Source: a virus (Duplodnaviria; Heunggongvirae; Uroviricota; Caudoviricetes). Taken from it: a DNA stretch of 8,043 bases. Shown here in pieces: positions 2,263-7,234 of this stretch. The notes below the pieces were generated by a model that was not told the origin of the DNA, ran no database searches, and saw only the letters and a program-made list of their open reading frames with translations. The translations under genes were made by a program, and so were the position numbers. The stretch lies in the IMG/VR virus record IMGVR_UViG_2617270947_000017; one strand, written 5' to 3'. Within the stretch, counting starts at the first letter, position 1; every line of letters starts with the position of its first letter.

Positions 2263-2278
2263 TTGTATATCTATACAG
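2263..2278. promoter_or_regulatory. Palindromic operator-like site in the alpA upstream region (TGTATA-TC-TATACA; resembles an SOS/LexA box)
   Basis: 2264-2277 is a perfect 6+6 inverted repeat with a 2-bp centre. The 16-mer TTGTATATCTATACAG (2263-2278) matches the recalled LexA consensus CTGT-(AT)4-ACAG at 14 of 16 positions, but position 1 is T rather than the conserved C. Lies between the cargo terminator and the alpA start, overlapping weak candidate promoter hexamers (TTTTCA...TAGATT). Confidence 0.3.
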
Positions 2279-2976: not shown

Positions 2977-3810
2977 ATGAACATCGAAAAAAGCAGATTA
3001 ATTTCTGAGGCCGCCCCTCATCTGAACGCCTCTCTGGGCACAATTAACGGTAATGAATTTGCCGCAATTGTCCCGGTTATTCCTGGTCATATCGGTGGGC
3101 GTGAAACCAATATTGTTAGCGCAAAAGCGTTACACAAAGCGTTGGGCGTGGGAAAAGACTTCTCTACATGGATCACTGATCGCATCTCTGAATATGACTT
3201 CACCATTGGGCACGATTACTCAGTCCATAAAACTATTTCCCCAAATTTGGGGAAAAGCCCGAATAGCGCGGCTTACAGCAAGATTAAGCACTCTGGCAGA
3301 CCCGGTAAAGACTATCTGTTAAGTGTCGGAATGGCGAAAGAACTGGCAATGATCGAACGCACCGAACAGGGCCGCGCTATCCGCCGTTATTTCATCCAGT
3401 GCGAGGAAGAATTACAGCGTAGCGTGCCTGAAATCGCCGCCCGCTATCGTCGCCAGCTAAAAGCCCGTATCAGTGCCGCAAACAACTTTAAGCCGATGTG
3501 TGATGCGCTGAATATGGCCCGTGCCGAGCTGGGTAAAACGACGCAGCAGCGCCACTACAGCAACGAGAGCAACATGATCGCCCGTATCGTGCTGGGTGGC
3601 ATGACGGCGAAGCAGTGGGCGCAGGCAAATGGCATTACTGGCGAACCACGGGACAGCATGAACGCAGCACAGCTTGAACACCTCGCCTATCTCGAAAGCA
3701 CCAATATCACGTTAATTGATATGGGCATGGAATATGAGCAGCGCAAAGGAGAACTCACCCGCCTGTCGCAACGCTGGCTCGCCAAGCGTCTGGAGGCGGT
3801 CAATGTCTAA
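2977..3810 (+). CDS. Phage antirepressor-like protein (277 aa; Ant/KilAC-type motif)
   Basis: GGAG RBS 9 nt upstream of the ATG. Central motif DYLLSVGMAKELAMIERTEQGRAIRRYFIQCEEEL is one I recall from phage antirepressor (Ant/KilA-C-type) proteins. Exact domain assignment needs an HMM search. Confidence 0.7.
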   Translation: MNIEKSRLISEAAPHLNASLGTINGNEFAAIVPVIPGHIGGRETNIVSAKALHKALGVGKDFSTWITDRISEYDFTIGHDYSVHKTISPNLGKSPNSAAYSKIKHSGRPGKDYLLSVGMAKELAMIERTEQGRAIRRYFIQCEEELQRSVPEIAARYRRQLKARISAANNFKPMCDALNMARAELGKTTQQRHYSNESNMIARIVLGGMTAKQWAQANGITGEPRDSMNAAQLEHLAYLESTNITLIDMGMEYEQRKGELTRLSQRWLAKRLEAVNV

Positions 3811-6318: not shown

Positions 6319-6882
6319 ATGCGAAACATTGATCTTATCCGTCAGGTTATCAGTGCGTCTGAAAACAACTGGCCTCATGTGCTGGGCTGCCTGAACATAA
6401 ATGTCCCTGACTCTCCGCGCCGTCATGCTCCCTGCCCTGCATGTGGGGGTAAAGATCGATTCCGGTTCGATGACAACGGGCGCGGTAGCTTCATCTGTAA
6501 TCAGTGCGGCGCTGGTGATGGGCTGGATTTAATTAAACGCGTAAATAACTGCGACACAACAGAGGCGGCGCTTCTTGCCGCTGATGTTCTGGGTATTGAT
6601 TACCGGACAACGGAAACACCAGAAGCCACCAGCCAGAAACGGGAACAACTGGAAACCGAGCGCCAGCGACGCGAACAGGAGCGCCTGAAAAGGGCAGAGA
6701 AGGACGAACAACAAAGACGGGCTACGTTTTCCCGTCAGTTTGATGACATGCGCAGAAAGGCCGTAAATGGCAAATCTGATTATCTGGTTGCGAAAGGGGT
6801 AGGTGATTTTACATTCCCCGTGTTGCCAGATGGATCTCTGTTGCTGGCGCTGGTGAACCGCCCCGGGAATCCTGGAGACTAA
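6319..6882 (+). pseudogene. Primase N-terminal fragment (P4 alpha-like zinc ribbon plus start of TOPRIM), interrupted by an IS element at about 6853/6854
   Basis: CPACGGKDRFRFDDNGRGSFICNQCG is a CxxC...CxxC primase zinc-ribbon motif; SDYLVAKGV...[15 protein letters not shown] resembles the start of a TOPRIM domain. The reading frame runs into the IS terminal repeat, so the last codons (NRPGNPGD-stop) come from IS sequence. Primases of this type are normally several hundred residues longer. Confidence 0.7.
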
Positions 6883-6907
6883 ACTCCCTGAGAAAGAGGT
6901 AAACAGG

Positions 6908-7234
6908 ATGACTAAAAATACACGTTTTTCCCCCGAGGTCCGTCAACGGGCAGTTCGTATGGTTCTGGAAAGTCAGGGCGAATATGACTCACAATGGGCG
7001 GCAATTTGTTCCATTGCCCCAAAGATTGGCTGTACGCCAGAGACTCTGCGTGTGTGGGTTCGTCAGCATGAGCGGGATACCGGGAGTGGTGATGGTGGAT
7101 TCACCACCGCTGAACGTCAGCGTCTGAAAGAGCTGGAACGTGAAAATCGTGAACTGCGCCGCAGTAACGATATCCTTCGCCAGGCTTCCGCTTATTTTGC
7201 GAAGGCGGAGTTCGACCGCCTCTGGAAAAAATAA
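6908..7234 (+). CDS. IS3-family transposase OrfA (HTH/leucine-zipper subunit), IS629-like (108 aa)
   Basis: [57 protein letters not shown]... matches my recollection of IS629/IS1203 OrfA almost residue for residue; ends [36 protein letters not shown]. Confidence 0.9.

Follow-up and report, generated by a model that had tools for sequence, protein, structure and literature searches.

The LexA-like 16-mer TTGTATATCTATACAG upstream of alpA (positions 2263 to 2278, no strand assigned) is tentatively read here as the form that a conserved promoter-spacer element takes in one lineage, in which case its resemblance to a LexA binding site would be incidental. Unless another locus is named, positions refer to the window, i.e. 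the whole stretch of 8,043 nucleotides that was analysed. The 16-mer would form the spacer of a predicted sigma-70-type alpA promoter, and the spacer of the window would be the E. coli-lineage version of an element found in related Enterobacterales islands. This element is shared as TGT...ATACAG, and the dyad and the SOS likeness of the window differ from the shared version, which argues for a conserved role other than LexA binding. The likeliest function would be that of a core-promoter or operator segment by which alpA transcription stays low until a helper-phage signal arrives. Weak LexA binding in the E. coli lineage would be a side effect at most, and that the 16-mer binds LexA weakly is doubtful in itself. 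Since it covers about -29 to -14 of the predicted promoter, any protein bound to it would be expected to exclude RNA polymerase.

The TGT...ATACAG element could be the docking site of a factor by which helper phages switch on alpA in Gram-negative PICIs (phage-inducible chromosomal islands). Should the site bind LexA, DNA damage would be sensed directly by this island lineage, in contrast to both islands tested to date. Should the spacer element instead bind another factor, it would show where that factor is to be sought. If neither applies, a good heterology index (HI) and promoter placement would be insufficient to call an SOS box, because the features critical for LexA fail the conservation test: judged from the sequences compared, the CTG trimer and the 10-bp spacing, which define a LexA operator, are not conserved in relatives.

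The island and the alpA promoter region

The window covers the left portion of a genomic island of E. coli encoding int, ORF316, alpA, a 143-aa ORF, antA, an Ash-like protein and a primase. A P4-type tyrosine integrase (int, 1 to 1254, + strand) marks the left end of the island and is followed by ORF316 (1273 to 2223, + strand), which encodes an unannotated protein and lies between int and alpA. The alpA gene (2330 to 2533, + strand) encodes a 67-aa protein of the AlpA/HTH_17 family (PF05930, 34.3 bits versus a cut-off of 21). It is the first gene of an operon, with ORF143 (the 143-aa ORF, 2533 to 2964) as the second and antA, encoding an AntA-type antirepressor (2977 to 3810), as the third. 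Gram-negative PICIs were recognized by a size of about 10 to 20 kb, the absence of structural and lysis genes and an AlpA of family PF05930. The order int, alpA, pri-rep was read in the window, AlpA belongs to PF05930, and intact relatives of the island are approximately 18 kb large and inserted between yicC and the SOS gene dinD. Moreover, the gene content 3' of alpA matches that of the experimentally verified satellite EcCIMP1. By its gene content, the island is a PICI-type phage satellite and alpA its putative master activator gene. In the segment from 6319 to 7234, the primase gene is truncated to 187 aa compared to approximately 780 aa in relatives, owing to the insertion of an IS3-family element (orfA at 6908 to 7234). 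Homology to intact islands stops at 6855, and the island copy in the window is probably replication-defective.

The intergenic region between ORF316 and alpA (2224 to 2329) contains a terminator-like hairpin directly 3' of ORF316 (2232 to 2259, + strand; -12.8 kcal/mol, z -5.2), with the core GGTACTG-CAAAATTA-CAGTACC followed by TTTT. Homologous hairpins were found in relatives. The hairpin arms correspond to LexA half-site cores at the wrong spacing (TACTG-N8-CAGTA), and nearly all relatives have them in exchanged order (GGTACAGTA...TACTGTGCC). Together, 28 upstream regions contain 39 occurrences of ACAGT and ACTGT, most of them contributed by this homologous hairpin, compared to 7.8 expected.

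A putative -35-like hexamer read from the sequence (TTTTCA, 2257 to 2262, + strand, 4 of 6 consensus positions) overlaps the T-tract of the hairpin and has only weak counterparts or none in relatives (TTATGC, TTATCC). The putative -10-like hexamer TAGATT (2280 to 2285, + strand), also matching at 4 of 6 positions and including T-12, A-11 and T-7, was assigned by comparison with relatives. The two hexamers are 17 bp apart, and the 16-mer comprises the first 16 bases of this spacer. A TAnnnT hexamer is found at the -10 position in nearly all related islands (TAAATT, TAACTT, TAATAT, GATACT, TAGTTT) and is conserved there across approximately 15 promoter versions. With a generic consensus scan at a threshold of 9/12, no promoter was called at this place on the + strand, the alpA candidate scoring 8/12. 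The original prediction that the palindrome sits where the alpA promoter should be is therefore backed by the TAnnnT hexamer at the same place in relatives, while the consensus score stays below the threshold and the transcription start, near 2292 for the predicted promoter TTTTCA/TAGATT, is a prediction only. In the FP4 variant (L315), two SNPs change CAGCTAGATT to CAGTTAGTTT; they weaken TAGATT (to TAGTTT) and improve the overlapping TACAGC (to TACAGT), which hints at two alternative overlapping -10 hexamers.

Between the -10 hexamer and the alpA start codon, a conserved inverted repeat was found (2285 to 2327, + strand; -13.1 kcal/mol, z -3.25), the arms of which are TTCTCGTAAC (2285 to 2294) and GTTACGGGAA (2318 to 2327). 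The Shine-Dalgarno sequence AAGAGG (2313 to 2318) is located in the loop end of this stem, and the 3' arm is separated from the alpA ATG by 2 nt (10-nt arm) or 4 nt (conserved 8-bp core). Written as CTCGTAAC-N23-GTTACGGG, the stem is conserved in approximately 25 loci from several genera, with the 8-bp core ending at a distance of 3 to 4 nt from the ATG in those loci that were scored. Compensatory changes (GC to CG, CG to TA, TA to GC) were observed as well as G.U-type wobbles. The repeat could be a 5'-UTR hairpin or a binding site of AlpA; with TAGATT as -10, its 5' arm would be left out of the transcript. The lambda PR' promoter with its Q binding element (TAAATT as -10, AACGA after the start) was considered as a possible relative and rejected, as the spacers are dissimilar and no terminator follows.

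The palindrome and its LexA score

The inverted repeat in the 16-mer consists of the arms TGTATA (2264 to 2269) and TATACA (2272 to 2277), which are complementary at all six positions and separated by 2 nt. The site was originally described as a perfect 14-bp inverted repeat. This is accurate for the arms and loose in wording for the whole, since the central TC is not self-complementary and TGTATA-TC-TATACA (2264 to 2277) is an interrupted palindrome of the form 6+2+6. Likewise, the reported match to the LexA consensus at 14 of 16 positions holds for the full consensus CTGTATATATATACAG, whereas CTGT-N8-ACAG alone is matched at 7 of 8 positions. The T in place of the conserved C at position 1 was correctly noted, the mismatches to CTGTATATATATACAG being positions 1 and 9.

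As a palindrome, the 16-mer is near chance level and not remarkable. The pattern with up to two mismatches is expected 0.20 times per window and was found at least once in 33 of 200 shuffles; a perfect 6+6 dyad with a spacer of 0 to 4 nt occurs in 2.4% of random 31-mers of the same composition. Dyads of comparable quality are present in approximately 4% of random 31-mers and in 3 of the 18 spacer versions scanned. A role of the palindrome as an RNA hairpin was rejected (fold of -2.1 kcal/mol, z -0.8). The 16-mer is present in a single copy in the island, where its nearest matches, in or beside the island, are the LexA-like sites of the island and the dinD box. To our knowledge, its spacing, as judged by inspection, fits none of the consensus sites of CRP, FNR, TyrR, PhoP and IHF, nor the 434 operator. 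Nothing similar to the alpA promoter region was found in 50,697 phage records, in which mimicry of a helper operator or promoter was likewise not detected.

For scoring, a Lewis-type heterology matrix was recovered by regression on 140 published sequence/HI pairs (PSOSP supplement, PMC12527982), the residual staying below 1e-4. It is a symmetric matrix based on 38 half-sites. T replacing the C of CTG is not represented in the source pairs, and its penalty was bracketed at 3.2 to 4.3. With this bracket, the 20-mer CATTGTATATCTATACAGCT (2261 to 2280) has an HI of 9.53 to 10.65, below the empirical binding limit of approximately 12.6 to 15 (approximately 13.6 in PSOSP) and close to the values of ruvAB (9.19), recN2 (9.38) and polB (12.09). 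The score called for by the original prediction is consequently not poor. It is the sole site in the window with an HI below 17, and a site this good was obtained in 29 of 3000 dinucleotide shuffles of the window (approximately 1%). A change of position 1 to C would lower the computed HI from 10.65 to 6.31. The trimers read TTG-N10-CAG, with five of six bases matching CTG and CAG. The site fills the spacer of the predicted promoter, of which the -10 hexamer is backed by comparison and the consensus scan is negative.

For TTG in place of CTG, one precedent was found, the dinG operator TATTGGCTGTTTATACAGTA, which is described as experimentally characterised in PMC8265657, citing Lewis and Mount 1992. 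The dinG operator and the window site both form an AT-rich dyad of 20 bp, in which one half-site is canonical (ATACAG) and the other has TTG, and the window site likewise overlaps a predicted promoter; with the reconstructed matrix, dinG has an HI of approximately 9 to 10. Unlike SOS boxes such as dinG, the candidate site of the window is not conserved in orthologous promoters.

Among 28 alpA upstream regions, four have a 20-mer with an HI of 12.5 or lower, all located in the promoter spacer, compared to an expectation of 0.03 by shuffling. One element accounts, in different versions, for three of the four, while the fourth (TACTGTATGGGCAACCACTA, L044 type) is independent. The latter site is found in a different E. 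coli alpA promoter type (L044, 2409 to 2428; also L332 and L333), has an HI of 12.46 with CTG...CAC and is located at the same place, directly before the -10-like hexamer TAAACT. Two direct repeats TTTCAATAGATT are present upstream of it, and its three copies are all identical.

Spacer versions in related islands and possible binding proteins

A scan of 5426 complete E. coli genomes identified a homologous intergenic region in 116 of them, with version A1, that of the window, in approximately 40 genomes and version A2 in 76. A2 is the closest E. coli variant and reads TTGT(C/T)CATATATGTACAG, i.e. TTG-N12-CAG. It is 2 bp longer, with a best HI of 21.5, and its dyad is imperfect (7 of 8 pairs over 16 bp) and unlike A1 in half-site and spacing. 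In other E. coli islands, homology is found only from approximately 2289 onward and the spacers are unrelated. Full-length ORF316 orthologues (37 to 61% identical) led to islands of Serratia, Pantoea, Klebsiella and Yersinia. At the corresponding position, ATGTTCATCCATACAG recurs without any change in Serratia (L318), Pantoea (L323) and Klebsiella (L321), with differing flanks; this version is non-palindromic (3 of 6 dyad pairs, HI 15.2). Intermediates have 4 of 6 pairs in L016 (HI 14.1) and L319 (HI 11.3) and 5 of 6 pairs in Tatumella (L008, HI 10.5), compared to 6 of 6 in the window. The element is absent from the orthologue-linked promoters L324 and L325, and many relatives have nothing similar.

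Common to all versions of the element is TGT...ATACAG beside the -10 hexamer. The C of CTGT was found in no lineage compared, position 1 being T or A. The absence of the palindrome in related islands, named beforehand as evidence against an SOS box, was largely observed, with HI values of 21.5 in A2 and 15.2 in the three genera, while those of Tatumella and L319 stay low. Compared with the three-genus version, the 14-mer of the window has three deviating positions, every one of which completes a dyad pair, for which the chance is approximately 8e-4 under random substitution and with the three-genus version assumed to be ancestral. In the FP4 variant, all five SNPs miss the 16-mer, which is not significant (p approximately 0.46). 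The spacer appears to be under constraint; the identical 16-mer across three genera could also reflect recent horizontal transfer rather than selection. Pattern scans of viral contigs with the motif and the downstream stem returned almost only chance matches, of which an AlpA-context filter left two loci, and a scan of species-representative genomes with AlpA yielded six loci only.

The two E. coli PICI alpA promoters tested so far (EcCICFT073 and EcCIMP1) are not SOS-inducible without a helper phage, and alpA of both islands encodes a self-activating, helper-phage-induced master activator (PMC6092414, PMC11773190). According to the 2018 paper describing Gram-negative PICIs, it is unclear whether a repressor exists, and the inducer is given as unknown (PMC6092414). 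EcCICFT073 was not located in two 45-kb fragments of CFT073, and the promoter comparison covers EcCIMP1. The latter is of the same island type, with a largely identical operon 3' of alpA (143-aa ORF, antA, DUF4222, ash, primase and ejection-protein module), but unlike the window it has no ORF316 gene upstream of alpA. Its alpA promoter is unrelated in sequence and contains no LexA-like site (best HI 15.1), so that the SOS-negative result is no direct test of the window promoter.

A weak, asymmetric LexA operator of the dinG type across the spacer would block the alpA promoter until DNA damage removes LexA and AlpA and AntA are made; satellite activation, and perhaps the awakening of a helper prophage, would then be coupled directly to SOS in the E. 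coli lineage. This explanation is rather unlikely. In favor of the link to DNA damage suggested in the original prediction are an HI in the range of weak boxes, reached by few shuffles and by no other site in the window, dinG as a precedent for TTG and the location in the predicted core promoter. The low-scoring Tatumella version at the same place and the enrichment of LexA-like 20-mers in alpA promoter spacers are also in favor of it, as is a canonical SOS box at an accessory operon of the intact island, and the EcCIMP1 promoter, being without such a site, does not bear on the window promoter. For a satellite module, LexA control has a precedent in SaPI operon I (PMC5052747). Against a LexA operator speak the failed conservation, i.e. 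the missing C of CTG in every lineage, the wrong spacing in A2 as the commonest E. coli relative and the high HI of the three-genus version, as well as the SOS independence of alpA in both tested PICIs. Furthermore, the HI is additive and pseudocount-capped and probably understates the loss of an invariant base, and a weak operator would be a poor sole brake on a self-activating gene. The more far-reaching version, in which direct LexA control of alpA by a dinG-like operator is combined with the accessory SOS box and DNA damage alone primes AlpA, AntA and the interference genes before or without a helper signal, is unlikely. LexA-repressed antirepressors are known from Gifsy phages, 186 (Tum) and N15, and antirepressors of the AntA type belong to a class of genes under LexA control in several prophages. 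In these systems and in SaPI operon I, a site for host LexA lies at a mobile-element promoter that drives interference or antirepressor genes. The window resembles them in that the candidate site is located at a predicted promoter of a mobile element and the alpA operon includes an AntA-type antirepressor. Whereas the boxes of SaPI operon I, Gifsy, 186 Tum and N15 are canonical, with demonstrated binding, the site next to alpA is a non-canonical candidate.

A dimeric regulator other than LexA might instead use the dyad in the promoter spacer as its operator, be it ORF316, whose HTH N-terminus and variable sensor region would make it an Stl-like repressor, AlpA at its own promoter, or a helper-phage protein. 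Such an operator is quite improbable. In its favor, PMC6092414 leaves open by what means alpA is silenced in Gram-negative PICIs, the differently designed dyad of A2 comes with a different ORF316-family protein that is only 35% identical, and the homology between island types breaks near 2289, so that the spacer travels with the upstream ORF. Precedents of spacer-located elements that recruit a regulator are the binding element of Pseudomonas aeruginosa AlpA (PMC7969949) and, as cited in the same paper, that of lambda Q. The candidate element is similarly placed between -35 and -10; unlike these elements, it is not followed by a terminator after the promoter and does not co-vary with AlpA. A sequence search of solved structures detected no relation between the AlpA proteins of P. 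aeruginosa and of the window. AlpA was rejected as binder of the 16-mer, as an identical protein (WP_001090781.1) occurs beside the A1 spacer (FP4), the A2 spacer (L002, STEC383) and an unrelated spacer (L003), which makes it unlikely that AlpA reads the 16-mer. The N-terminus of ORF316 is HTH_17-like, its middle part is highly variable and its C-terminus is conserved over 75 aa; ORF316 gave no match in Pfam, PHROGs, PADLOC, NCBIfam or PDB sequences. Many islands of Enterobacterales encode members of its family between int and alpA. Hardly any difference in the HTH of ORF316 was seen among the window (with the palindrome), L318 (with the non-palindromic version) and both L324 and L325 (without the motif), while Tatumella combines a palindrome-like site with a different HTH type common to islands without the motif. 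ORF316 is linked to the promoter segment and does not co-vary with the 16-mer. For an Stl-like operator, co-variation of site and protein would be expected and a promoter dyad usually in more than one copy; co-variation was found for neither AlpA nor ORF316, and the dyad is present in one copy only. The suggestion of an island repressor operator is thus left without support. The chance-level frequency of such dyads and the lack of anything similar in the phage records also argue against an operator of this kind.

It is improbable as well that the 16-mer is a neutral AT-rich spacer without sequence-specific function, palindromic by chance and for that reason similar to the (TA)n-rich LexA consensus. 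Palindromes with arms of 6 bp are about as frequent as expected by chance, the surrounding 1 kb has a G+C content of only 36%, and the three-genus version already contains TGT, AT and ATACAG, from which a few A/T changes give a LexA-like string; the five FP4 SNPs outside the 16-mer are compatible with neutrality too. This is opposed by the identical 16-mer in three genera with diverged flanks, by the completion of a dyad pair at all three differing positions (if the three-genus version is ancestral) and by the enrichment of LexA-like scores in alpA promoters. Compared with these alternatives, a conserved promoter-spacer element with an incidental LexA resemblance remains the tentatively preferred reading.

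SOS boxes elsewhere in the island family

A canonical SOS box of the form CTGT-N8-ACAG was found at another promoter of the island family (GACTGTTGTTTTATACAGTT, HI 9.53; AACTGT... in other copies). It is located at 17219 to 17244 of L001 (NZ_CM129861.1), equivalent to approximately 10,370 on the scale of the window and beyond the window end. The box directly follows a terminator and a perfect -10 hexamer (TATAAT), which it abuts, and lies upstream of a 57-aa ORF, followed by genes for DNA-ejection proteins. In EcCIMP1 and NC101, a DUF2824 gene precedes the latter genes. The box and its -10 hexamer are invariant in copies that are 91 to 95% identical; where LexA control is selected in this island family, the canonical form is present. 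The module was found in approximately 500 of the 5426 complete E. coli genomes, including EcCIMP1, and, by analogy, looks like a Gram-negative counterpart of the LexA-controlled SaPI operon I. Members of the island family integrate within or next to a 220-bp yicC-dinD region containing the dinD promoter (L001/L313, L314), and the dinD promoter region near the integration site holds a strong SOS box with an HI of 3.34.
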